Shown: positions 25,890-50,391, numbered from the stretch's first letter. The stretch: 64,000 nucleotides of DNA from an uncultured cyanobacterium (GCA_963793265.1 CAWBZI010000001.1:960001-1024000); one strand, 5' to 3'. Notes: a model not told the origin generated them from the sequence alone. A program made the numbers and translations.

Positions 25890-28800
25890 ATGAAGCGCTA
25901 TGGCCTGATTGTGGGGATTGACAAGTATAAGCCTGTCTCTCGTCTGCCGTATTACGGAAGTCCAACAAGCTTGAATAGGGCTAAAAGTGACGCTCAGGCG
26001 GTGTATGAGCTGCTGCGGGAGCATGGCGATTTTAACGATCTTTTGACTCTGTACGATAGTCAGGCGACTGAGGCTGAGCTGAAGAAGGCGCTAAAGCATG
26101 TGCTATTGGAGCAGGGCAAGCAGGCGGAGGTGCTGATTTATTTTGCGGGGCATGGGTTTACGGCGCAGCCGAGTGAGTTTGAGCGGCAGGGGTATTTGGC
26201 GACTTACGATTGCCAGGTTCGGGTGCAGGATGATGTGCCGGTAAATGTTGAGCAAGGGCTGTCGTTTGAGTTTTTGAACGGGGTGATTGGGAAGGCGCAG
26301 CGGGAAGGGCTGGCAGGGCTGGCTGTGTTTTTGGATTGCTGTGAGAGTGAGCTGATTATTGAGGATGCGCTGATAGGTCACAAGCTGAGCCGACTGACGC
26401 AGAAGGGCTGTTTTTTGAGTACGGCCTGTCGGAGCTTTGAGGTGGCGCGGGAGGATGCGCGGTATGGGCTGTATACCGGGGCTTTGGTGGCGGCGCTGAC
26501 GGATGAGGCGGATGTGAGTGCGGGCAATGAGATTACGGTTTCGGAGGCGCATAATCGGGTGGAAAGGGCGCTGAAGGAGTCGGGGCAGGAGCCGATTGCG
26601 TTTGGCTATGGCAGCAGTATGGTGATGGTGCGCTATCGGGGTGCGGGTGTTGCGCAGGCGGTGAGTGAGGTGTGCCCGTATCAGGGGTTGAATGAGTTTA
26701 CGCCGGAGACGGCGCAGTTCTTTTTTGGGCGGGATGATGAAGTTGCTGAGCTGTGTCAAAAGCTGAGGACGACTAATTTTGTGCCAGTGTTGGGGCCTTC
26801 GGGGAGTGGAAAGTCTTCGGTGGTGCGGGCGGGGCTGGTGAAGAGGCTGCAGACTGAGGGCTGGCAAACGGTGACGATGAAGCCGGATAAGCAGCCGATG
26901 GTGGAGTTGGAGCGGGTGCTACGGCAGTTTTTTGAGACGATGGGGTTTTCTACCGGGCGGGTGCGTGAGGTGATGGAGGGTTTGGGCTTTTGTGAGCTAG
27001 GTGAGGGCGATTTGAGTGGCGATGACCATAAAGCCTTCCCGAAAGAACTAGACCATCTGAAGCAATCCGACCTTAAGCTATTGCTCATCGTCGATCAGTT
27101 TGAGGAGGTGTTTACGCTATGTGAGGACAAAGCAGCGCAGCGGGCGTTTATTCGCAAGCTATTTCATCTGGGCGAGGTGGGAGCATCGCGGATAAAAGTG
27201 GTGATGACGATGCGGTCGGATTTTGTGGATGACTGGCTGGCGGCGGGACTGTCGCGGTCGGTGATTGGGGAGGATACGGTGTGGCTGGGGGCGTTGCAGG
27301 GAGAGAATTTGGCGGCGGTGATGGAGCAGCCTGCACGGAAGCAGGGCTATGCGTTTGAGGCGGGGCTGCTGAAGCTGTTGCTGACGGATGTGGACAAAGA
27401 AGAGAATTGTTTGCCGCTGTTGGAGTTTGCGCTGACGGCGCTGTGGGATAAGCGAGAGACGCAGACTAGAAAACTGACGGTGACGCTTATGAAGAGATGG
27501 AAGGGCTGACAGGGGCGCTGAATCGGCAGGCGATCACGGTGTATGAAGGCTTGCAGGACGTGGATAAGCCGTGGGCGAAGCGGATTTGTTTACAGCTTGT
27601 GCGGGTGGGGCGAGGGGATAAAGATACTCGGCAGCGGCAACCAAAAGCAATGTTGTTGAGTATGGGCGGTGTAGCTCAGCGACAGGTGATTGCTGATGTG
27701 ATTGCTGATTTGGTGAAGGGGCGATTGTTGGTGAGTGATGGAGGTGGTGTTGCAGAAACCGCTTATGTGGATGTTGCGCATGAAGCTCTGCTGAGCGGAT
27801 GGGAGCAGTTTGCCGCATGGCGGCTGGAGGATAGAGATCTGCTGCGGCTAGAGCAGCGGCTAAAGGATGCTTATGAAGATTGGCAAGCTAAGGAAGATAG
27901 TCAAGAAAGAGATAAGTATTTACTGACAGGTGGGCTGCTGGCGGAGGTAACAGAACAGCACGTGGCACTAGGCGAACGGCTGAGAGGTAATCGTCCCGCA
28001 TTGATGAAGTACCTCAATGACAGTAGCCGGAAAGCTGAAAAAGATGTAGAAGTATTAAAAAAAGCGCTTGCCAAGGCCAGCCTACAAGAGGAATCTCGTA
28101 AAGTCTTAGACAAATTCGAATCAACTTCAAGCCTCTCAGTAGAGGCTACTCTGTCAGTGATAGAAATTGCAGGGAGAAGTAAGCATACTTTGAATGAGTT
28201 GATTCCGCCTGTTCAGAATGCCTTGCACACAGCGCTATCAAGAAATCGAGAGCGATTGAGAATAGAGAATCAGATGAGTCTAGTTGATTCACTTGCTTTC
28301 AATCCCTCATGCGATATCTTTGCTGCCGGGAATGAGGATGGAACTCTTCGCTTGTGGGATATGCACGGAAACCCAGCCAGCCAGCCTTCTCCAAGTAGAC
28401 ATTGCGGTAGCATTTGGTCGTTAGCATTTAGTCCCAAGGGAGATCGAATCGTCTCTGGTGGAAGCGATGGCATGTTATATCTCTGGGACTCACAAGGTTC
28501 TCCGATTATATGTTCATTTGAGGGGCACACTAGCGAGTTCATGGATGTTGCTTTCAACCATAGAGGAAATCTCATCGTATCAGGCGATAGAGAGGGTATT
28601 CTACGCCTTTGGAATAGAGATGGAAAGATGATCGGGGACCCTTTCTTTGTAGAGAATTCAGGATCAGTTCTATCCTTATCTTTTAATAAAAAAGGAGATC
28701 ACATAGTCTCATGTCACGATAGCGGAGAAGTATTTTTGTGGAACTTAGCTGGCGAAATTGTTGGTAAACCTTCTTTTTTTGAGGCAACAGGATTCTCTGT

Positions 28801-30307
28801 TGTGGCAATTAGCGCCAGTCAGAATGCGTTTGTATGCGGGGATGAAGACGGCGCATTGAAATTGCAGAATATAGATGGCAATCCAATGACTGACTATTTT
28901 TGGTGCCAATCGCCTGTAGTCTCTATTGTAGGCTTTAGCCCGGACGGAGAGCGAATAGTTTCAGGTAGCAGCAATGGCCTTTTGCAAATATGGGATCTAA
29001 AGGGCAATTCTATTGGCAGACCTCTTGCAGGGCATACTGACGAGATTTTGTCACTGTCTTTCAATGCATCAGGGGATAAGATTATATCTAGTAGCAAAGA
29101 TGGCACTACGCGACTCTGGGATTTGACGGGTACTTTGATGAACAAGCCTTTCGCTGTCCATCATAATTATGGCGTCATACTTTCTGCTGACTTTAGTCCC
29201 GATGGCAAGCGGATTGTTGCTAGTGGGGGCTCTGGTATGATCTCTACTCCCGGCGTTTGCGTTTGAGATTTACAAGGCGTTCCTATTGGCTCAGCTTTCG
29301 CAGAGAATGCTGGATTTTCGGCTATCAGTCCAAAGAATAATCATATTGTTTGTTCTAAAGGTAGTAGCCTACAAGTCTGGGATTTAGAAGGTAATTGTAT
29401 GAGTCCATCCTTCGATGGACACAAGCACACCGTTTCGTCTGTAGCGTTCAGTCCGAACGGAGAGCAGATTGTCTCTGGTAGCTATGATGGCACCGTTCGA
29501 CTCTGGGAATTAGATGGAAGTCCTATTGGCAAGCCGTTTATAGGACATACACGAGCTATCTGGTCTGTAGCCTTCAGCCCAAAGGGGGACTGTATTGCGT
29601 CTGCTAGTGCTGATAGAACTCTGCGCTTATGGGATTTGGATGGGAATCTACTTGCTAAGCCTTTTGTTGGGCATACAGACGTCATTTCTACAGTGGTATT
29701 CAGTCCAGCAGGAGAAATTGCCTCTGGCAGCTTTGATCAAACAATACGGTTGTGGTCAGTAGATGGCCAGCCTATTTTAGAGCCTATGATTGGCCATGTT
29801 GGCGAAGTCAACTCACTAGCATTCAATCCAAGTGGGACACTGATTGCTTCAGGTGGTAGCGACAACACTGTAAGATTATGGGACGTAAAAGGAAATTCTG
29901 TTGGCGAACCTTTCTTAGGTCATACCGCTTCTGTCAATGCAGTAGCCTTTAGCCCTAAGGGTGACTTGATAGTCTCAGGTGATTCAAATCAGTCTATCAG
30001 GGTTTGGCCTGCCGGAAGTGGTAACGATTGGATTCTCCATTGCTGCAATACCCTTATGCACCATTCTACCTTCACTTCTCCCTCAGATGGATCAGCAGGC
30101 GTCACCGCTCATAATGCCTGTAGTGTATGCGAACAACTGTGGACAAAGCAGCTATTTTCTGAGTTTCTAGTAGCGCAGGGTAGCGCGTTAGCACGGCGAG
30201 GGGAGATAGATACAGCGATTGAAAAATTCAACCATGCAAAAGAACTGAACGCTGAGCTGACGTTAGATGCAGTGGCTCGGGCGAATGAGCTAGCAGAGTG
30301 GGGGTGA
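25890..30307 (+). pseudogene. Caspase (C14) - STAND ATPase - WD40 repeat protein, interrupted by a frameshift (~27483) and an in-frame TGA (29264-29266)
   Basis: YFAGHG / LDCC dyad; CPYQGL, FFGR, GPSGSGKSS, IVDQFEE, LPLLEFAL, AHEALL; many GH...VAFSP.G...SGS.D..VRLWD repeats. The three ORFs join into one frame with one added base and W for the stop. Confidence 0.85.
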
Positions 30308-30360: not shown

Positions 30361-30642
30361 ATGATTGTTTCTTTCAAATGTAAGGAAACTGAAAAACTGT
30401 TTCGCGGTAGGTTCTCCCGTAAGCTGCCACAGAACATTCAGCGAATAGCAGCCCGTAAGTTGGAACAGCTTCATGCTGCCACCATTTTAGATACGCTGCG
30501 AGTACCCCCCGGCAATCGGCTCGAATCACTCAGCGGTGATAGAAAAGGGCAGCATAGTATTCGGATAAATGACCAGTGGAGACTTTGCTTCATTTGGCAC
30601 AACGGCAACGCAACTGATGTAGAAATAGTTGACTATCACTGA
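30361..30642 (+). CDS. higB: HigB (RelE family) toxin, copy 1
   Basis: MIVSFKCKETEKLF...LRVPPGNRLE.L.GDRKGQHSIRINDQWR...EIVDYH. Confidence 0.95.
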   Translation: MIVSFKCKETEKLFRGRFSRKLPQNIQRIAARKLEQLHAATILDTLRVPPGNRLESLSGDRKGQHSIRINDQWRLCFIWHNGNATDVEIVDYH

Positions 30643-30652
30643 GGTAACTTCG

Positions 30653-30979
30653 ATGAGCGATTCTCGAAACGAGAGGCTGAGCCAACGCGACTTTCCACCT
30701 ATACATCCCGGCGAGATACTGCTAGAAGACTTTCTTAAACCAATGGATCTCAGTCAGTATGCTTTATCTAAAGCTATTGGTGTTCCCCCTCGTCGGATCA
30801 ACGAAATTGCGCTTGGCAAAAGAGGCATCACTGCCGATACTGCTTTGCGGTTGGGTCATTTCTTCGGCATGGAAGCGCAGTTTTGGATGAACCTTCAAAC
30901 TCGGTACGATTTAGAAACAACGCGCGAACTCTTATCCGATCGATTGATCCAAGAAGTTCGCACTCGCTCAGCACTCTAA
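30653..30979 (+). CDS. higA: HigA antitoxin, copy 1
   Basis: PIHPGEILLEDFL, RRINEI..GKRGITADTALRL, FWMNLQ. Confidence 0.95.
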   Translation: MSDSRNERLSQRDFPPIHPGEILLEDFLKPMDLSQYALSKAIGVPPRRINEIALGKRGITADTALRLGHFFGMEAQFWMNLQTRYDLETTRELLSDRLIQEVRTRSAL

Positions 30980-40280: not shown

Positions 40281-40562
40281 GTGATTCGGAGCTTTAAGGA
40301 TAAGGAAACTCAAAAAATATTTGAGCGAGTGCGATCGCGCAAGATTCCTTCGGATATTCAGCAAGTCGCCTTAAGGAAGCTAAGAATGCTCAACCGTGCA
40401 GAGACACTTCAAGACCTTCGTGTACCACCAGCTAATCGTCTAGAGCGTCTTGTTGGCAATCGAAAAGATCAATACAGCATCCGAATTAATAATCAATGGC
40501 GAGTCTGCTTTGAGTGGCAAGACGGTGATGCCTTTGATGTAGGGATAGTTGACTACCACTGA
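40281..40562 (+). CDS. higB: HigB (RelE family) toxin, copy 2
   Basis: IRSFKDKETQKIF...LRVPPANRLE...YSIRINNQWR...IVDYH. Confidence 0.95.
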   Translation: MIRSFKDKETQKIFERVRSRKIPSDIQQVALRKLRMLNRAETLQDLRVPPANRLERLVGNRKDQYSIRINNQWRVCFEWQDGDAFDVGIVDYH

Positions 40563-40572
40563 GGTTTTAACA

Positions 40573-40881
40573 ATGAGTGTAGATAAGTTGAGTCCTATTC
40601 ATCCTGGCGAAGTGCTTCTCGAAGAGTTCTTAAAGCCTATGAACCTTAGTCAAAACCAGATGGCGTTGGCTTTGCGGGTGCCAGCGCGGCGCATCAATGA
40701 GATTGTTCATGGAAAGCGTAGAGTCACAGCAGATACAGCGCTTCGATTAGCACGCTATTTTAATATGTCGCCTCGCTTTTGGTTAGGGTTGCAGATGGAC
40801 TACGATTTAGATATTACTGAAGATGCCGTAGGCGAACAGTTAGATAAAGAAGTTGCTGTTTTGACACCTGATGAGCGATAG
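40573..40881 (+). CDS. higA: HigA antitoxin, copy 2
   Basis: PIHPGEVLLEEFL, RRINEIVHGKRRVTADTALRL, FWLGLQ. Confidence 0.95.
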   Translation: MSVDKLSPIHPGEVLLEEFLKPMNLSQNQMALALRVPARRINEIVHGKRRVTADTALRLARYFNMSPRFWLGLQMDYDLDITEDAVGEQLDKEVAVLTPDER

Positions 40882-41429: not shown

Positions 41430-42864
41430 CTACAGACTTTCAATCGCACTTCCTAGCTTTGCATGTTTGATGTCACCCCAACGTTGCCCGGACTTGCATT
41501 TTTTAGAGGCAAGTTGCTCAGCGATATCGGCTGAAATTACGACGCGAGCAGGGGCTAGCTGGTTGAGAGATCTGGCGAGTTGGTAGTGATGCGACTGGCA
41601 GAGTAGATTTTCGAGCCGTTGAGCGATTCTTCTTTGGATAGGCTTCGCCAGCTCACACCCCTCAGCCTTATCCAATAGCAAAACATAATGCGCCTTCGGC
41701 TTCATCACGGGCGTCAAGCTCTGAAACCCTGATGCAGGTAGATTCAAGCGATCTATCACATCGCTAACGAACTGAATGTGGAGCTTTTCACCGACCAAAT
41801 CACTGACATCTTTGCCACGTCCGACAAATTTGAGGCAGGGTGTTTTGAGAAAATAGTGCGTGACTTGTACGCGATCGCCCATCCGATACCGGTAGAGCCC
41901 ACCCATTTGAGAAACAATCATCTCATAAGTGTCTCTTTCATTAAGCTGGTGCAGCTCATAAATATCACCCTTTCTATCTTCAAACTCAAAGAAAATCTCG
42001 TCTAGTAAAGGCACCTGGCCCTTAGCGGCAATCAGTGGAACGGTCATCGGCGCTTCGGTAGCAAGAAGTCCCTTCCCTTGAATTAAAACATCGGGAAAGT
42101 GCTGTCGTAGGCTACCGGCACCATCGGCGGCGGTGGCACTGTCCCAACAGGAAATGAGCTTTAGGTGGGGCCATTGCTCGGCGTAGGGAATTTTGGATTG
42201 AATGTAGTCTAGCTGGGCGGTTAGAAAGCTAGGGCTCCAAACGGAGATGATTTCTAAGTCTTTGGTTTGTAGGAGGGTTTTGGCCAGATTTTCTTTGAAG
42301 GCTTTGGGCGATCGCGCAGTCGGCGCAATGACTAAAAACGGTTTTAGCAGCCAGCGTAACCAAGGATCAAGATAGTCAGCATCATCTGTTGTACCTGTAG
42401 AATTTGATTTACTAAAGCTGGGCGAAATAGAGAAATAGAGCTTACCTTTTGAAAACTTAGGGCCGTGCCTAATCAAATCGTGTGCCCATACGCAAAATAG
42501 ATGGTTGAATGAGCGGCGTAGGGAGCGAGTGTATGGAATTTGTTTTACAGGGCCGCTGCTGCCTGATGTGGGTTCGTAGAACAAAATGCGTTCCGGCGTA
42601 AGCGGGCTGGTGTGTGCCGTAGAGCGCTCGATCCAAGGTTGCAGGTCTTCATAGCTCACAATCGGTAGCCGGTGCCAGTCTTCGAGGCTACGCATGTTAA
42701 ACTGTTGGCCATATTCACAAGCTTTAAGCTGCTTGATTAAGCGCTGTTGTACCTTTTGCTGAGCCTGTTGAGGATTCGCTAGTGCTTTGTGAAATCGTTT
42801 GGAAGCAGGGGCTAGCAGGTAGGCGAAAGACTTTTATCCAGCTACGGATGAGGATGTTTCGCAT
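41430..42864 (-). CDS. GH3 family acyl-acid amido synthetase (apparent +1 frameshift near 42830)
   Basis: LPIVSYEDL, YEPTSGSSGPVKQIPYT, KGLLATEAP, GGLYRYRMGD, SDLVGEKL. The frame stays open upstream of 42695 (FAYLLAPASKRFHKALANPQQAQ) but reaches the ATG at 42864 only if one base is removed. Confidence 0.85.
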
Positions 42865-43511
42865 GGGGTTTCGCTTGCTTGAGGAGAGGGCTGAGGATTC
42901 TGTTGATTGGGGAATAGGTCGCTGGTGACGGGTACCCAGTCGCCTGCTGCGATGACAACGCCGGGGCCGAGGCGAGAGGCTGAGCCGATGAAAGCGCCTG
43001 CACCAATTTTGATGGGATTGATGTAGAGCATCAGGTCTTGGCGTTTGGGTTTGATGACGTGGGCGTATAGGCCGACCTGATGACCGATGATGGCGTGATC
43101 GCCCACCTCCAAAAGCCCCCGATCTGCAATCTCCAATCCCGGTGCCCAGTACACCTGCTGCCCTACTTTCGCGCCCCATAGCCGTAACCACGCTGAAAAT
43201 GCGCCCGGTATAAGCCGCAGGATCGTTTCAAGCATTGGGAAAGCAATATAAACGAGCTGAATTTGATGAGCGCCCCACCACGGAGAATAATCATCGCCCT
43301 GTAAATAGCTAATGCCTTTGATAACGGGATAGAACCGATTGTGTAGTCGATAGACAAACAGCGGAAAGCCGTAGAGAGAAAATAATAGGAGACTTAACCA
43401 TAATATAATTTCTAATACGCTATTAGCGAGGCACAACCGTAGTAAGGAAAGTCCTGTCAGTGTGATCGCGACTGTGGGAAATAGCGAGAGTAATCGGCTA
43501 AGTAGTGTCAT
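42834..43511 (-). CDS. Membrane-anchored hexapeptide-repeat (LbH) acyltransferase
   Basis: Two TM helices, then LRLWGAKVGQQV, EVGDHAIIG, IKIGAGAFIG, LGPGVVI repeats. Confidence 0.8.
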   Translation of the reverse strand: MTLLSRLLSLFPTVAITLTGLSLLRLCLANSVLEIILWLSLLLFSLYGFPLFVYRLHNRFYPVIKGISYLQGDDYSPWWGAHQIQLVYIAFPMLETILRLIPGAFSAWLRLWGAKVGQQVYWAPGLEIADRGLLEVGDHAIIGHQVGLYAHVIKPKRQDLMLYINPIKIGAGAFIGSASRLGPGVVIAAGDWVPVTSDLFPNQQNPQPSPQASETPCETSSSVAG

Positions 43512-44254
43512 GACAATTTAAAAGGGTAGAACAGCTTTTGCCACAAAGTCAGCGATGTTTTTATCCCTAGAACGGCTGGTAGACTAATAGTGTTTTGTGC
43601 CGTACCGTGCAGCCGATCCCACAGTTTGAGATTAGCGCCAAAATTGCAGTTGTGGTTTTGTTGTCCGTGGTGACCGGCATGGTCTTGAGGCAGTATGAGC
43701 CAGGGTGAGAGTAGGAAATAGAGAAAGCTGTTAGGATTTGGCCCTAACTGAGAGTGTCGCCACAGGTCAAGTACGGCGGTTAGAGTGATGCCCCATAGAT
43801 AGCCGCTTGGATCTTGGAGTAAGTACAGCATGAGCGCGTGAATCCATAGGTACAGGATAAAAAAGCTGCTCCACAGGCTGTTTCGAGAGGTGCCTAATAC
43901 GTCTAGCTGCGTTACGGTGTGGTGCACCTGATGGAGGGGCCAGCCTTTTGTGTGTAGCCAGCGGTGATTCCAGTAGTAGGCATAGTCTACGACAACAACG
44001 CAGAATAAAAAGCTGAATAGTGGCGGCAGCGTGAGGCGGTGAGCAACGTGAGGAAATAGAAAATGCAAAGTGGTGGACAACAATCCAATTTGTAGCGCTG
44101 GAATCAGTACACCTTGAATGATCAAGCCGCTAACGTCTAGAATCCATTCGGCTTTAGGCTTATGGCGTAGCCGTTGCCAGTTGCCAGATCGCTTTATGCT
44201 AAGACCTATTAATAGCCAAAAGGTGATGAATATAGGCAGATCGAAGGGTGTCAT
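43508..44254 (-). CDS. Sterol desaturase / fatty acid hydroxylase family protein
   Basis: His boxes YWNHRWLH, LHQVHH, HAGHH; NFGANLKLWDRLHGT. Confidence 0.9.
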   Translation of the reverse strand: MTPFDLPIFITFWLLIGLSIKRSGNWQRLRHKPKAEWILDVSGLIIQGVLIPALQIGLLSTTLHFLFPHVAHRLTLPPLFSFLFCVVVVDYAYYWNHRWLHTKGWPLHQVHHTVTQLDVLGTSRNSLWSSFFILYLWIHALMLYLLQDPSGYLWGITLTAVLDLWRHSQLGPNPNSFLYFLLSPWLILPQDHAGHHGQQNHNCNFGANLKLWDRLHGTAQNTISLPAVLGIKTSLTLWQKLFYPFKLS

Positions 44255-44257
44255 AGC

Positions 44258-45284
44258 TTATACCCAGAAGGTGATTTTGGCTGATTGGTTGGGAAGTTCG
44301 CGAGGGTCTTTGCCTTGAGCGATCGCATCTCGAATCGACTCCACAAACACGTGAATAGTGTCAGCAGGCGTATGCGTAAACCGTTCGCCATATTTGTTGA
44401 TTGTTTCACTTTGCAGCTTCAAAGCTGCGATGTCTTGGCTAATAATTTTTTGAGCCGTCCAGCGCACAAACGGGCGGGCCAACTGGTTCCAAATGCCGTA
44501 GTTGAAAGTTACGTCTGTGTAAACGAGGGTAGTAGTATCGCTTTCAGGAACGGATTGACTGGTGATGAAGCAGCGGCGCGGTTGTCCCAAAGTTTGGCCC
44601 ATGTCGTACTCTACGCTGGTGATGTTCGGCATTAGAAAACGGTCTACATGAACAATCTCTTTGCCCTGCGGATTTAAGAACCAGCCGAACCAACCAAGAT
44701 TGTCTGTCTCTTGGTGATAGGTAGCGGTGACGGTGCCATGACTTCTCTCTACGCTCATCTGTAGCGGCTGCTGCTTTGTCTGGCGAAAGATGCCGGGATG
44801 AACAGAGACAGTGTGAGGAATGTCGATGAAAGTTTTCAGCGCAGTTGGTGACCGTGTTTTGAAAGCGGTTAATGACGCGGACAGTTGACCAGTCTGGGGA
44901 CTGGTAGTGAGGCATGATGAAAGGGTCTGATGATGGTTGGGAGAGGCAAACGTAGATGTAGCCGTCTTGTTCTTTGGTGGCGTAGGCGATCGCCCCGCGA
45001 GATACTTTCGCACATGGGTTTTCCCCTTCAGCAGGAACCGCCACCACTTTGCCAGCGCGATCATATTGCCAGCCATGATAAGGGCACTGAACTTTACCCG
45101 CTTTGACTTTGCCAGCAGAAAGACGGCTGTTGCGATGAATGCAGCGATCTTGCAAGGCAACTGGTTTGTTGTTCTCATCACGAAAGATAACGAGCCACTC
45201 GTCTAAGATGGTTCGCGCTAAGGCTGTTTTTTCGGTGAGCTGTTCGCTTTGGGCCACGACATACCAAAAGTTTGAGAAGTTCAT
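44258..45284 (-). CDS. Rieske non-heme iron oxygenase 3 (apparent +1 frameshift near 44830)
   Basis: DRCIHRNS...CPYHGW Rieske motif; AENF joins IDIPHTVSVH (mononuclear Fe site) if one T is removed from AACTTTCATC. Confidence 0.85.
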
Positions 45285-45565
45285 GTCTTTAGCGGCGAAA
45301 GGGAAAGGTCGCCAGTCGCGTGAATTTGGCAGGCTAGACGGACAGCAGGATTTTGAGGTGCGAGAATGCTGAGGACTTCTTTTTCTTCGGAAGTCGGTGG
45401 CAGGAGTTCACCTGTAGCGGATACGAGACAAGTGCCACAGATACCAGTGCGACAGCCGAAAAGAATAGGTGAGTTTTGAAGCGTGAGCGCGATTGAAAGG
45501 GGCTGATTATTAATAGTGACGGCGGGATATTGGCTGTCAGGGAAGTGAACGATGTGAGAGTTCAT
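45281..45565 (-). CDS. 2Fe-2S ferredoxin
   Basis: FGCRTGICGTC...RLACQ; ATGA overlaps on both sides. Confidence 0.9.
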   Translation of the reverse strand: MNSHIVHFPDSQYPAVTINNQPLSIALTLQNSPILFGCRTGICGTCLVSATGELLPPTSEEKEVLSILAPQNPAVRLACQIHATGDLSLSPLKT

Positions 45566-46554
45566 GCTTGCTTTGACCATTGAGAGGGAATTAAGTCGTT
45601 TACGTATCTGATGTATTCCGTTAAGGGGCGGTCGATAGGCAACAGGTTTTGTGGATTGAACTGAATGTTGTCGTATATTTGGCCATCTTCACCACGTAGA
45701 GCGTAGTAACAGAGTTGAGTGAGGAGCAATAGCATTGTGTTTATCAGCCAGCCAATCGGGCCTTTGCGCTTACGGGTGACGTAGATCGGCTGTATGCGTG
45801 TGCCGCCTGAAGCGAGGGGAACGTAGGCATATAACAAATGGAGCGGCGGTAGGAAGCGCACGTTTTTCATCATGGTTAGCAGCCCTACGCAGCCATGTGA
45901 ATAGCGCATGGAATAGGTATAGGTGTGGCCCAGTATTTTTTGACCGATGCCTGTGGGTAAGTCTCCGGTGAGGGTGAAGTCAATCTGGCCCTTTTCATCT
46001 TCCCGATCTAAAGAGAGTGACATATCGACAGGCAGATTATGCACAGTCTGTAAATGCTGCACGTCGATGCCGTTCATCATACAGATGTGGTGATGGCATT
46101 TACGTTCCAGGGTTTTATCGGCGCGGGTGATGATTTCGTGGCCTTTGAGTTCGTCAAATTCGGGGAGGCTTGAGGGGGCGATCGCATCAGGATAAACCCA
46201 AACAAACCCATACTTCTCTTCGGTCGCATAAGCCTGAAGCCTCGCGTTCGCGGGTATGTGCGACTGACAGGGAATCTGTTGACAAACGCCCGACTCGTCA
46301 AAAGCCCAATGGTGAAAAAAGCAGCGGGCTTGATTACCCACCACGTCGCCAATGCCTAAATCTGTGCCCATGTGCGGACAGTAGGCGTCGAGCGATCGCA
46401 CCCTTCCATCCTCACCTCTAAACACCGCAATCCGCTGGCCGCACACATCGAAAGACTGAATGCTTTTAACAGGCAAAGCATCACTAGCACAAACGATATA
46501 CCAGCCTTTTACAACAACATCAGGATTATTGAAAATAGTCAGCCCCATAGTCAT
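45562..46554 (-). CDS. Rieske non-heme iron oxygenase 2
   Basis: DAYCPHMGT...CFFHHW; NGIDVQHLQTVH; EDGQIY. Confidence 0.9.
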   Translation of the reverse strand: MTMGLTIFNNPDVVVKGWYIVCASDALPVKSIQSFDVCGQRIAVFRGEDGRVRSLDAYCPHMGTDLGIGDVVGNQARCFFHHWAFDESGVCQQIPCQSHIPANARLQAYATEEKYGFVWVYPDAIAPSSLPEFDELKGHEIITRADKTLERKCHHHICMMNGIDVQHLQTVHNLPVDMSLSLDREDEKGQIDFTLTGDLPTGIGQKILGHTYTYSMRYSHGCVGLLTMMKNVRFLPPLHLLYAYVPLASGGTRIQPIYVTRKRKGPIGWLINTMLLLLTQLCYYALRGEDGQIYDNIQFNPQNLLPIDRPLTEYIRYVNDLIPSQWSKQA

Positions 46555-47720
46555 TCTCCTTTTGCTTTCAAAAATCTGGGCAAAGCTCGCCGTTGCACTG
46601 CTAGATAGCTTTCTACTGATGCTTTAGCCATAACAGCCATTTGTTGATTGCTCGGCCAAATGTAGGTAAGCGGTGCGATATACGCCCGGTAGGCGCTCAT
46701 TGCTTCGTAGTGAGTCTGATAGCTTTGATGCAGTCCTTCCGACTCTTGGGTAAAGCACTGCTGCATCATCTCCTTAGTTTGTTGTATGTCGAGTGCAAAA
46801 AGAGGCGATCGCAATAATCTATAAACCGTTTCATACAGGCCAGGATCGTGCCAAAAAATGCCGTTAATAACCACAGAAAACGTAGAATGGTCGCGCTGAC
46901 AACCACGAATGCCTAAGTTTGCAATCTGTCGCTCAAGCTTAGTTGGTGCATCCAAACAGTTAATGACCTCTTGAGAAATGAGCGTAGAGCTATTGAAGTG
47001 AAAGCTTTCGTCTAAGAAATGATAGTGAGAAACCTGGCTAGGAATCGGCGCAGAGTCAGCGTCATTAGCACAATATTGGCTGAGCTGATGCTGTACGAGC
47101 TTACCGTTTAGCGTACGCAGGCCGCGCACCGTAAAATACTGACAGGCGAGAAACGTGTTGCTTGCCGATACAAGTCCAAAAACCTGTAGCTGTAGCTGCT
47201 TCCATTTCTTTTTTAGCTCGCTAGTATCAGCAAATAGCATCGTTTCAGTAAACGGGCCGCGCATCGGATAGCTGAATAAAGGCGAATCAAACAGGGCGGC
47301 TTCTGTGCGACGGGCAATCGTTTGAAAGGCTTCAATATGCGTACGTTCCTGAACAGATTCGAGGTCTAACATATTGCAGATATCGCTAAAACCTGCATGG
47401 GCGTAGAGCCCGGTGGCACTGGTTTGATTGAAGTAGATAGTCGCAATTTCAGCGGAGATAATTTGGGAGTAGTAGGCAACCCAGTAAAGATGATTGAGGG
47501 TTCGGCGCTGGTCTTCGGTGGCTTGCTCCCATAGCGGCGTACCGTAGAGAAGAGAGAACTTTTCAGACTGCCAGTATTGATCTTTGCAGTCTTCATAGCA
47601 GAAGTCTCGTGCTGTTTCCTTCAGCTTTTCGGTTTGATCTTGCTGCTGGTTTCGTCGGTAGTTGAGCTGAATTTTTCGGTTTAATAAATCTGTTGTAGGA
47701 CGTGCTGCGGTGGCAATCAT
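46551..47720 (-). CDS. CylC/AurF-like dimetal-carboxylate enzyme (putative halogenase)
   Basis: LNHLYWVAYYSQIISAEIAT, LESVQERTH (ExxQExxH), HFLDESFH (HxxDExxH), RGLRTLNGKL. Confidence 0.75.
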   Translation of the reverse strand: MIATAARPTTDLLNRKIQLNYRRNQQQDQTEKLKETARDFCYEDCKDQYWQSEKFSLLYGTPLWEQATEDQRRTLNHLYWVAYYSQIISAEIATIYFNQTSATGLYAHAGFSDICNMLDLESVQERTHIEAFQTIARRTEAALFDSPLFSYPMRGPFTETMLFADTSELKKKWKQLQLQVFGLVSASNTFLACQYFTVRGLRTLNGKLVQHQLSQYCANDADSAPIPSQVSHYHFLDESFHFNSSTLISQEVINCLDAPTKLERQIANLGIRGCQRDHSTFSVVINGIFWHDPGLYETVYRLLRSPLFALDIQQTKEMMQQCFTQESEGLHQSYQTHYEAMSAYRAYIAPLTYIWPSNQQMAVMAKASVESYLAVQRRALPRFLKAKGE

Positions 47721-47721
47721 T

Positions 47722-48636
47722 TTATAAAGTGCCTTCGACTAGGCACTGAGAAGGGGGCAGTGGGGAAAATAAGCTTTTGCTGTCTAAGATTTCTGCGATA
47801 CTGGGGGCGGTTGGGGCGATGAGCGATCGCAACAAACTCAACCTTCGCCCACTATGCCTTTCTGTCTCTAACTCTGATAGCGTCGTGACAGCTTGAGTGC
47901 GAGAAAGTCCGCCTTTTGTAAGAGCGATCGCGCCCAAAACCCGCTGCGGCCCAACTCTCACCATCTGTAAAAAGGCCGCTAGCGTATCCACAATTGCATT
48001 CTGGCTAGCAGCAGTCAGCCTATCACTATCAAACAGCGTCACACCTGCGCTATGGTGCTTTGCCTCAGCCTGTAAAAAGCTATGGAACATTTTAGACAGC
48101 TCAGGATTGCAACAGCTTTTACTTAGCGAGCGGTAGTGGCTGAGTCCCCAGCCTTCTAATACGACTTGAATGACGAATATTAGAACTGTGCGATCGCTCT
48201 TTTCTAAAAGAGACTCTAGAATCTGTAAAAAAGGATCGTAGGTGCTTAAGTGATCGCGAATCAGCGGCTTTAACTGCGCCAAATGCATTGCCTCATCGGC
48301 GCTAAATAACGCATATAGCATTCTCTCCTCAGTCGTCTCAGCCATCAGCGTCATTTTCGACATGTAGCCAACGCCCGCCTTTTCAATAAAGCATGACTCA
48401 GACAAGAGCCCTTGACTGGCAATCTGCAAAATTTGGGTTTGTTCTTCAGCAGAAGACTCTTGAAAAAGAGACACTGAATTCAAACCAAAAGATTCCGCAT
48501 TCCAAGGCGGCTCGCATAGCGGATCTATTGCCTTCGTCTGCCTGTCTCTCAGCGCGGCATCTAGAATCTTATTAAGCTTGTGATTAGGTGTGATCGCCGG
48601 TAGATCTAATCCTGCAATAGAAGACATATTTTTCAT
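47722..48636 (-). CDS. Ferritin-like diiron protein
   Basis: FIEKAG, ADEAMH, VLEGWG, AEAKH: E / DExxH / E / ExxH ligand set. Confidence 0.8.
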   Translation of the reverse strand: MKNMSSIAGLDLPAITPNHKLNKILDAALRDRQTKAIDPLCEPPWNAESFGLNSVSLFQESSAEEQTQILQIASQGLLSESCFIEKAGVGYMSKMTLMAETTEERMLYALFSADEAMHLAQLKPLIRDHLSTYDPFLQILESLLEKSDRTVLIFVIQVVLEGWGLSHYRSLSKSCCNPELSKMFHSFLQAEAKHHSAGVTLFDSDRLTAASQNAIVDTLAAFLQMVRVGPQRVLGAIALTKGGLSRTQAVTTLSELETERHSGRRLSLLRSLIAPTAPSIAEILDSKSLFSPLPPSQCLVEGTL

Positions 48637-49635
48637 GTGACTCGGCTCCAGGTTTTCCAATTCAACGCAGGCTGTTGTTCTACGTGTTTTACAAACTCTA
48701 GAATGGACGCATCCGCTTGAATGGGCGCTTTGAAGTCAAACTTGATGCTATCGAAAACTTCGCGATCACCCTTCGCAAAATAACTCGCCACCCCTTTCGT
48801 AATCGCCAGCCGCACCCGATTAAACAACCAGCCACCGACTCCTCGACCGCTTAGGCGTCAACAATACCACCCATCCCTCAGTCATACCGCCTGCCGCCGG
48901 ACGCAGCGCAAACATCAAATAAAAGTTAAGGAAGTCTGGCCCCACCGTCACCGTGCCCGTACTGCCATACCAATAACAAAGCCGGTACGTCACCGCCTCA
49001 GGATACAGAGGCCGAATGAGTTTTACAAACTTAGAAGCCTCACCGCCCCGCGTCGTATTACGAAAGGTCAGTGCGCTTTCATTTAGCGCCTTTGTTTCAA
49101 ACCGAATCTCTAAGGGTAAATCGTGCACCGAATTAAAATGATGCGCGTCAATCGCGTTAATCAGCACGACATTAGGATGACAGTTGCGCTTAAAAAATCC
49201 GCTTAAAGCCGAATCGCACTCGCAGTTCTCAAGTTCAGGTACATACGGCAAAGGTAACTTCTCACTTTCTCCTACCCATACCCAAACCAAACCATAGCGC
49301 TCAGCAGTCGGCCAAGATTTCACCGTTCTATCCGGCAGTGAAGAGAACCCCGGCGCTGCCACACACTCACCACATTCATCGAATTTCCAACAGTGCAGCG
49401 GACAGCGAATCTGCCCCTTTTCTACCGTTCCTTGAGCCAGCGGCGCGCCTAAATGAGGACAGTAGGCATCCAGCGCAACCGGCTCATCTGTTTGGTTACG
49501 ATAGAGAACTAAATCCCTTCCCAACAAAGTTACAGCCTGCGGACGAGACTTTAACTCTTTTGAAGGAATTGCCCAATACCAGCCCTGAGCAAACCGTTCA
49601 GCCTGATTAAAAATCTTAGCTGATACCGTTTTCAT
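48633..49635 (-). CDS. Rieske non-heme iron oxygenase 1 (apparent +1 frameshift near 48846)
   Basis: DAYCPHLGA...CPLHCW; NAIDAHHFNSVH; the C-terminus GVGGWLFNR...FAKGDREVF...IQADASI lies in the shifted frame and ends in an ATGA overlap with the next gene. Confidence 0.85.
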
Positions 49636-49638
49636 AGG

Positions 49639-50391
49639 TCACGTCCTCGGGGTAGCTCGCAGAGGCAAAGCGGCCTCAGACGATTGCGACGAATCACCAA
49701 ACCACATTCGTCGCCCGGCCCGCGTCAAGTTATCTTCCGAAATCTCTGTCAAACACACCAACTCATCTCCCCGATCTGCCCCCGGATTCTGTTGTGCAAA
49801 AAATCGAACATGTGGATTACGCAATCGCTCGGGCGGAATGCCTTCCAAATGGCCTCTAAGCTGCTGAGGGGCGGGCAAGCGAACAACACCCGCCGCTTCG
49901 TCATACCATTCGCCAAACTGACGGCGACAGAGAAACTGCATAAGGCGGCGAGACTTTGATGGGATAGGCCGATCATGGCGAGGGTAAAAGGTTTGCCAAA
50001 ACGTCGGCATAAATCGGTAGGTGCGAAAGCCCGATGAAATCAAGAGCCAGTAGAGTTTGGCACCTTCGTATTGTTCTTTTAGCTGATTGACGGCGGCTAT
50101 CCAGGCTACAGACAGCGCTGAGCTTGACCACACGCTCGGATCAACAATCGTATCACCCGAATACACAACGGTAATCAGCTCGCCTTCAAAGGTGATGTCA
50201 TACATCAGTAACGTTGAGAATCCTTTTAGCGCCCGGCTTTCATCTTTTAGCAGCAGCACCCAATTTTTTAGGCCGAGATCGGTTTCAAACACCTCTGGCG
50301 TCGCCCCAGCAAAGTGAGCGTTCAACAAACCATACATAGCCGCTTTGTCTGTGGCTGTGAGCGCGGTGGTTTTGATCAGTTCGGTTTGCAT
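49639..50391 (-). CDS. Hypothetical protein, possible GNAT-like acyltransferase fold; first gene of the operon
   Basis: LKGFST, VYSGDTIVDP, YWLLISSGFRTYRF, NPG..RGDELVC; fold is inference. Start may be 50409. Confidence 0.7.
   Translation of the reverse strand: MQTELIKTTALTATDKAAMYGLLNAHFAGATPEVFETDLGLKNWVLLLKDESRALKGFSTLLMYDITFEGELITVVYSGDTIVDPSVWSSSALSVAWIAAVNQLKEQYEGAKLYWLLISSGFRTYRFMPTFWQTFYPRHDRPIPSKSRRLMQFLCRRQFGEWYDEAAGVVRLPAPQQLRGHLEGIPPERLRNPHVRFFAQQNPGADRGDELVCLTEISEDNLTRAGRRMWFGDSSQSSEAALPLRATPRT

Follow-up and report, generated by a model that had tools for sequence, protein, structure and literature searches.

What could a cyanobacterium make with six iron oxygenases or oxidases, two acyltransferases and a GH3 ligase encoded in a single operon that has no carrier-protein machinery? 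The question is posed by a stretch of 64,000 nucleotides from an uncultured cyanobacterium (GCA_963793265.1 CAWBZI010000001.1:960001-1024000; the whole stretch is hereafter the window), in which ten genes follow one another on the minus strand from position 50391 to 41430. In this direction they encode a GNAT-fold acyltransferase, Rieske oxygenase 1, a ferritin-like diiron protein, a CylC-like diiron enzyme, Rieske oxygenase 2, a ferredoxin, Rieske oxygenase 3, a fatty-acid hydroxylase, a left-handed beta-helix (LbH) acyltransferase and a GH3 protein. Three of the junctions are gaps (3, 1 and 3 bp) and five are ATGA overlaps of 4 bp, while the LbH and GH3 genes overlap by 31 bp; promoter and terminator scans stay at chance level, and among the listed carriers of the sequence none is an RNA data set. 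A Pfam scan of the ten genes returns three Rieske domains, Fer2, FA_hydroxylase, three GH3 domains and AurF, with weak Hexapep and Ferritin_2 matches below cut-off. Iron oxygenases or oxidases account for six of the ten genes (three Rieske, two soluble diiron and one membrane diiron), and two products, the hydroxylase and the LbH acyltransferase, have sequence segments that mark them as membrane proteins. Tblastn searches with the FAAL, a fatty acyl-AMP ligase, and the ketosynthase (KS) of the same genome find no match in the window, a scan of 36-56 kb finds no acyl carrier protein (ACP) motif, and the search for carrier or activation genes near the 39 related loci yields one weak AMP-binding match, at the edge of a single locus. 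An earlier sequence-only reading of this DNA had described ten co-oriented genes in this order with tight junctions, six iron enzymes among them and no carrier-protein machinery, and the gene calls, coordinates and searches agree with it throughout. On balance we lean towards a single conserved pathway encoded by the ten genes, likely leading to an oxidised, amide-linked lipid that is assembled without a carrier protein of its own.

The operon is a conserved unit. We surveyed 401 genomes drawn from the phylum and defined a strong match to the CylC-like protein as E<=1e-130. Any match is present in 43 of the 401 genomes and a strong one in 31, at 51-66% identity outside the window's own genome; 21 of the 31 belong to the window's class and 10 to other classes. 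All ten genes occur in 18 of the 39 related loci, some of which are incomplete at contig or retrieved-segment ends; seven loci have exactly the window's order and two more differ by an inserted short-chain dehydrogenase/reductase (SDR) gene. Gene order is thus kept beyond chance, which answers a point on which the sequence-only reading had made its proposal depend. Each of the 31 genomes with a strong CylC-like match also has the GH3, GNAT and second diiron genes, even where the cluster is scattered, and where a split cluster was tested, the genes for LbH, hydroxylase and Rieske 2 turned up elsewhere in the genome (5/5 genomes). Within the genus a strong CylC-like match is seen in 6 of 36 genomes. 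The gene set is therefore an all-or-none, patchily distributed unit; since the genomes are related and not independent, the co-occurrence counts are descriptive. The ferredoxin gene is present in 33 of the 39 loci. Accessory genes of the 39 loci are of a lipid type, with an Mpo1-like 2-hydroxy-fatty-acid dioxygenase in nine, an amidohydrolase in nine, a family 2 glycosyltransferase (GT2) in six (one on the opposite strand) and an SDR in five; a SnoaL gene occurs in two. A desaturase gene adjoins the cluster at L047, and an MMPL gene at L056. The upstream genes for a thioredoxin-like ferredoxin and a LysR protein and the downstream DUF29 gene were rejected as members of the unit, being present in only 1, 1 and 0 of the 39 loci.

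The core of the unit appears to be the pairing of its first and last genes. The first (49639..50391, 250 aa, of an unnamed family) has no Pfam match, and a single-sequence structure model of its product is unusable, with a predicted local distance difference test score (pLDDT) of 37. The AlphaFold2 model computed from a 36-row alignment reaches a pLDDT of 91.8, and its Foldseek and VIA matches are GNATs, in keeping with the earlier description of the gene as GNAT-like. The best match has Z 12.2, LasI follows with 11.2 and FeeM with 10.9, and none stands out; overall the matches, which include aminoglycoside acetyltransferases, lie at Z 10-12 with a root-mean-square deviation of ~3 Å over 140-175 residues. 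Its neighbours in the Atlas are unnamed or GNAT clusters. The confident model thus confirms a GNAT fold, of a sub-family that cannot be assigned. The last gene (41430..42864) contains three GH3 domains (PF03321, PF23571 and PF23572) and, by the motif definitions given in PMC12493201, nucleotide-binding motif I (TSGSSGPVK), motif III (GLYRYRMGD) and a divergent motif II (GLLATE against YGSSE), features that place its predicted product in the acyl-acid amido synthetase family.

GNAT matches occur in 41 of the 401 genomes, and GH3 matches at E<=1e-30 occur in the same 41, out of 68 with any GH3 match; this cut-off was chosen after viewing, at a gap in the distribution beyond which the next-best match has an E-value of 4e-23. 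Ten of the 41 genomes lack a CylC-like gene, and in eight of these ten the GNAT and GH3 genes lie within ~5 kb of each other. Their neighbours include fatty-acid desaturases (L066, L067, L070, L077), a cytochrome P450 (L074), MMPL transporters (L069, L070, L074, L076), radical-SAM enzymes (L072, L073), Rieske proteins and a UnbU/UnbV-like fusion. On a quick tree the GNATs of these loci fall into more than a single group (4 changes). Two of the loci (L066 and L074, in genomes G301 and G055) have the pair beside a large NQR2/RnfD-like, FG-GAP, ASPIC/UnbV fusion, with Rieske and desaturase or P450 and MMPL genes, and represent a second orphan system on the same GNAT and GH3 core. In two small genomes (L072 in G114 and L073 in G140) the pair is accompanied by radical-SAM enzymes, which in L072 are of the B12-binding type, and the scanned neighbours include no identified oxygenase; L073 also has an LbH gene.

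A direct bacterial precedent exists for the carrier-free, GH3-dependent amide formation that the sequence-only reading had proposed. OlsH, a bacterial GH3 enzyme, uses ATP to couple ornithine to free fatty acids and yields N-acyl-ornithine (PMC12493201, Rivera-Najera et al. 2025), so that neither an FAAL nor an ACP would be needed, and it is this amidation of free fatty acids that makes an oxidised amide lipid the likeliest product. Like the OlsH/OlsI system of Singulisphaera acidiphila, as described in the accessible text, the present operon encodes a GH3 protein with motifs I and III beside acyltransferases; it differs in its partners, which are a GNAT and an LbH protein and not an alpha/beta-hydrolase or N-methyltransferase, and in six added oxygenases. 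The substrates, the order of the steps and the product that we infer from the observed gene content, motifs, folds and co-occurrence are as follows. In an ATP-dependent reaction like that of OlsH, the GH3 enzyme would couple a free fatty acid to an amine or amino acid. Further acyl groups would be attached by the GNAT and by the LbH acyltransferase at the membrane, with primary metabolism as the probable source of the acyl-CoA or acyl-ACP donors. The six iron enzymes, supplied with electrons by the ferredoxin (45281..45565; PF00111 and a C-x4-C-x2-C...C motif), a likely donor to the oxygenases, would oxidise the chain or the head group, and the CylC-like protein might act on an unactivated C-H bond, inserting chlorine, oxygen or a double bond.

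Several observations weigh against this scheme, in which the substrates and product of all ten genes are predicted from sequence. Plant GH3 enzymes act on small aryl or oxylipin acids. The structural matches of the GNAT are generic and do not point to a long-chain acyl donor. The LbH protein (42834..43511) has an N-terminal hydrophobic membrane segment and a His151 that is invariant in the alignment, and its nearest solved relatives by profile matches are galactoside and maltose O-acetyltransferases; its matches to Pls/PosA, WcaF and HpsU are weak and below cut-off. The nearest solved relatives of the Rieske enzymes act on small molecules or steroids. The likeness to OlsH follows published motif definitions and not a comparison with the OlsH sequence, and OlsH works with the alpha/beta-hydrolase OlsI, a type of gene absent from the ten in a search limited to the operon (PMC12493201, accessible text). 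Ornithine lipids have not been identified in cyanobacteria according to the accessible part of a 2026 review (PMC12971839).

Some of these matches would suit a different product, a small diffusible acylated metabolite with an aromatic or amino-acid scaffold, such as a pigment, a signal or a siderophore-like compound, and not a membrane lipid. Besides GxtA/SxtT, the solved Rieske relatives that act on small molecules include the dicamba and methylxanthine demethylases, the GNAT matches include LasI and the aminoglycoside acetyltransferases, and the cluster is patchy even within the genus. The Rieske and GNAT matches are, however, weak, the former centred on the Rieske domain, two of the operon's enzymes are membrane proteins, and desaturase, Mpo1-like and MMPL genes recur beside the cluster, all of which make a small metabolite an unlikely product. 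A catabolic role, in which the cluster activates and degrades an external lipid or sterol, would account for the Mpo1-like, amidohydrolase and SDR accessory genes and for KshA among the Rieske matches. Here the acyl-transferring trio of GH3, GNAT and LbH is the core, whereas the hydrolase and Mpo1-like genes are optional (9/39 loci), the neighbours that were scanned yielded no identified gene for an importer or for beta-oxidation, and many of the hosts are photoautotrophs; we regard degradation as highly improbable.

The CylC-like protein (46551..47720) belongs to the oxidative part of the proposed lipid pathway. Its relevant residues are E91, Q124-E125-x-x-H128, Q210 and H234-x-x-D237-E238-x-x-H241, of which E91, Q124/E125/H128 and H234/D237/E238/H241 are invariant in 37 rows. 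The QExxH and HxxDExxH motifs and the helix-1 Glu are those of the halogenase type, with a predicted 3-His/3-Glu site. In the CylC-type halogenase NocO, nine residues are all required for chlorination, and a Gln takes the place of the helix-3 Glu in a small subset of homologues (PMC12101540, Wang et al. 2025, accessible text). The protein from the window shares with CylC and NocO the motifs, the helix-1 Glu, the predicted metal site and eight of the nine essential residues, and differs from them in the absence of a cognate ACP or FAAL and in Gln210 at the ninth position, that of the second-sphere Glu (helix-3 Glu, NocO E252). This position was assigned through E284 of the homologue at L063, which is separated from its following Asp by the same 30-residue spacing as NocO E252 from D282. 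On a quick tree of 62 rows, a 34-row clade with a Shimodaira-Hasegawa-like approximate likelihood ratio (SH-aLRT) support of 99 has Gln210 in 34/34, against Glu in 27 and Asp in one of the other 28 rows; representatives shorter than 330 residues were left out, and AurF, NocO and the sequences of PMC8406957 are not among the rows. The clade excludes the homologues L061-L063.

Is this enzyme an N-oxygenase of the AurF kind, as the sequence-only reading had allowed? Such an enzyme would turn an amine into a hydroxylamine, nitro or related group. The ferritin-like diiron family is shared, a Pfam AurF match (PF11583) lies above cut-off at 34.7 bits, homologues are named 'AurF' in databases, and the second diiron protein has AurF-family neighbours in the Atlas. 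But the PF11583 match is confined to residues 47-149, QExxH stands where AurF has Asp135, the E196 ligand that completes the 3-His/4-carboxylate site of AurF is absent, and neither the protein nor its profile finds anything significant in the PDB, AurF included. Because of QExxH in place of the AurF Asp and the missing AurF-type fourth carboxylate, the protein is CylC-like and not AurF-like as judged by its residues. It is also a clear homologue of the conventional CylC-type protein of the same genome. By its motifs, the choice that the sequence-only reading had posed between CylC and AurF falls to the former, and the N-oxidation it considered finds little support; an N-oxygenase pathway is very improbable.

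Halogenation, which the same reading had written into its name for the operon, is less easily settled. The enzyme is predicted to functionalise an unactivated C-H bond; that it chlorinates is doubtful in our estimate from its residues, and unproven, because Gln210 replaces, across the whole clade, the Glu needed for chlorination by NocO. In a variant of the lipid scheme the enzyme would chlorinate a free or lipid-bound acyl chain, and the chlorine would be retained, or be cryptic and lost by substitution or elimination. The motifs, the predicted 3-His/3-Glu set, the lack of an AurF-type fourth carboxylate and the homology to FAAL/ACP-linked CylC-type proteins speak for this variant, and Gln could preserve the second-sphere hydrogen bond proposed for Glu252 (PMC12101540). 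Against it stand the contrast between Gln210 in all clade rows and Glu or Asp in the remainder, the failure of NocO E252A to chlorinate (PMC12101540), and the use of ACP-bound chains by both assayed enzymes, CylC and NocO, where the present cluster has no cognate ACP and may conceivably draw on the housekeeping one. We hold the chlorinating variant as possible, with some scepticism. Chlorine isotope patterns are easy to spot. Even so, the 36 clusters of this type catalogued by Eusebio et al. (PMC8406957, accessible text) are without any assigned product.

A second, conventional CylC-type cluster occurs in the same genome (L063, G000:C6:683000-702999), with an FAAL, an ACP, a 468-aa halogenase with the helix-3 Glu, and a KS, as well as a TubC_N-domain protein, two SDRs, a glycosyltransferase resembling monogalactosyldiacylglycerol (MGDG) synthase and a GMC oxidoreductase. 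It served as the control for the FAAL/ACP/KS and CylC-type comparisons; its CylC-type protein is 29-38% identical to that of the operon, which is ~80 residues shorter. Weaker CylC-type matches of the L063 kind are found in about nine genomes of the genus. The Gln210 clade itself divides largely by class (22 rows of the window's class, the f35 rows and the f38/f39 rows). This split would fit an old inheritance or an early transfer of an oxygen-dependent pathway; since both the CylC-like and the GNAT tree were built quickly and lack a functionally characterised outgroup, no claim is made on age or direction of transfer.

The other iron enzymes are conserved as well. The Rieske box and the mononuclear-iron motif are present in all three Rieske genes and in their relatives (28/28, 20/20 and 24/25). 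Rieske 1 (48633..49635; PF00355) and the intact, 330-aa Rieske 2 (45562..46554; PF00355) share ~30% identity, and the nearest solved structures of the latter, GxtA/SxtT and KshA, are matched at only E~1e-20; Rieske 3 (44258..45284; PF00355 and PF19112) has a VanA-type C-terminal domain. The membrane diiron protein of the fatty-acid hydroxylase/sterol-desaturase family (43508..44254; PF04116, 84.8 bits) is recognised by its His boxes and hydrophobic segments, and its NCBIfam match to the ornithine-lipid hydroxylase OlsE is weak, 49 bits against a cut-off of 475. Internal stops flagged in hydroxylase genes were dismissed as artefacts, located near the start of an over-long query open reading frame (ORF). 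The second soluble diiron protein (47722..48636, 304 aa) has a full E / ExxH / E / ExxH ligand set, with E85, E115, H118, E161, E191 and H194 invariant in 29 rows. Its Atlas neighbours are ferritin-like or diiron oxygenase clusters, a sequence search of the PDB gives weak, non-significant diiron matches alone, and a profile comparison of the two soluble diiron proteins gives no significant match. Its gene occurs in three genomes in addition to the 31 with the CylC-like gene (G127, G251 and G261; L117-L119), where it is 36-43% identical to the L001 copy, lacks the rest of the cluster and has no partner genes beside it.

The copy in the window raises a question of its own, separate from what the intact pathway does. 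Three of the ten genes, Rieske 1 (at 48840), Rieske 3 (at 44828-44832) and GH3 (near its start, at 42825), carry one extra base each, a circumstance absent from the sequence-only reading. An intact homologue of Rieske 1 aligns in two frames, PF00355 and PF19112 of Rieske 3 are likewise in two frames, and removal of the extra base gives open frames of 333 aa (Rieske 1), 341 aa (Rieske 3) and 477 aa (GH3). We compared contigs of near-identical organisms from four runs of two studies, one of which (X4) barely covers the frameshift sites. The extra base is lacking in X1 and X3 at 48840, in X1, X2 and X3 at 44828 or 44832, and in X1 alone at 42825; for this reason the frameshifts are probably assembly artefacts, consensus errors from mixed strains. 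Two different alleles of the Rieske 3 site occur in run X1, and the window carries their union; at each of the three sites, moreover, the sequence can be interpreted as two synonymous alleles combined, as a consensus over mixed strains would yield. This support is modest, since random insertions produce such a pattern by chance 44% of the time at a single site and 9% of the time at all three, a frequency that weighs against the artefact. So does the clustering of the breaks, which alone would suggest decay: frame changes affect three of the ten genes, compared with two among 93 orthologous loci in the remainder of the genome (post hoc Fisher p 0.006), and the only two frame changes in a set of 75 matched loci both fall in this cluster. 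Moreover, only a single run bridges the GH3 site. No frame change is found in the 39 related loci.

The GH3 gene also lacks, in frame, ~24 internal residues present in most relatives, another feature that had gone unreported. With the three frameshifts taken as real, they and this deletion would make the copy a decaying operon. Enrichment of frameshifts in the operon favours decay, as does damage in other copies. In G410 (L105, C21) an internal stop interrupts the CylC-like gene, and the ferredoxin gene of this locus lies ~1.3 kb from Rieske 2; in G167 (L109:6899-8881) the Rieske 2 orthologue, intact in the sister genome G105, is interrupted by an IS630-family element of ~0.95 kb, which splits the gene, so that the pathway may be dead in that strain. 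Conversely, none of the three sites is broken in near-identical contigs from the environment, each can be interpreted as an allele union, and the shortened GH3 is shared with run X1, whose contig spans the place with no insertion listed, and with a distant GH3 (L073) that also lacks the segment. Decay of this copy is thus conceivable, and we give it limited credence.

Two further observations concern the rest of the window. Two similar small gene pairs on the plus strand (40281-40881 and 30361-30979), which we take from sequence recognition alone to resemble HigBA-type toxin-antitoxin modules, are found there, the first of them flanking the 3' end of the operon together with the DUF29 gene. 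A caspase-nSTAND1-WD40 gene (25890-30307, plus strand) is split into three ORFs, with its NTPase domain broken at ~27500; at 27483 an additional base is present in one X3 contig, and X1 and X2 are the same as the window.

The cluster is real, widely conserved and orphan, and its kind is already on record. In 2021, Eusebio et al. (PMC8406957) listed 36 'Rieske-containing' clusters with a CylC homologue and no product, each comprising a sterol desaturase, a single CylC homologue and between two and four Rieske proteins, with no carrier or activation protein. Their survey met CylC homologues in this setting more often than in any other; homologues were also seen in deltaproteobacteria and Melainabacteria, and action on fatty-acid intermediates without a carrier was proposed. 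As far as the accessible text shows, the present cluster does not differ in kind from these Rieske-/PriA-containing clusters. It shares the Rieske count (three here), the sterol-desaturase gene, the single CylC homologue, the lack of a carrier or FAAL nearby and the position of that homologue in a well-supported clade apart from those linked to polyketide synthases (PKS) and ACPs, which corresponds here to the 34 rows. The statement in the sequence-only reading that such clusters had been noted in cyanobacteria without a product is confirmed by this source. Its claim of an uncharacterised system stands in that no product is assigned, and gives way in that both the cluster type and carrier-free action on fatty acids were already on record. 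'GH3' has no occurrence in the main text of PMC8406957, where Fig. S4 and Table S4 may show it, and the strict pairing of GNAT with GH3, the 31/31 co-occurrence and the clade-wide Gln210 are not found in its main-text passages. Neither a product assignment for the cluster type nor mutants in model strains appeared in the literature searched, which left most subscription journals out of reach.

To the existing catalogue we add a defined unit with a minimal set of ten genes, its GH3 and GNAT core and, on the strength of the co-occurrence data and the OlsH precedent, a concrete first reaction open to assay, that of GH3 with a free fatty acid, ATP and an amine. The intact copies L001, L044, L102-L104 and L106 are better experimental material than the frameshifted assembly. 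A carrier-free enzyme of the CylC type would be a useful catalyst for functionalising C-H bonds, a point made in the accessible text of PMC8406957. If the proposed pathway is correct, the amide lipid would be of a type not yet reported from cyanobacteria in the literature found (compare ornithine lipids, PMC12971839, accessible text). More speculatively, and with rather low expectation on our part, the portable GH3 and GNAT core and a six-oxygenase tailoring module, common to oxygenic cyanobacteria and their non-photosynthetic sister classes, might produce amide lipids of a class not described so far, heavily oxidised and perhaps chlorinated in a cryptic way; the Gln210 clade would then comprise the first CylC-type enzymes working without a carrier protein.

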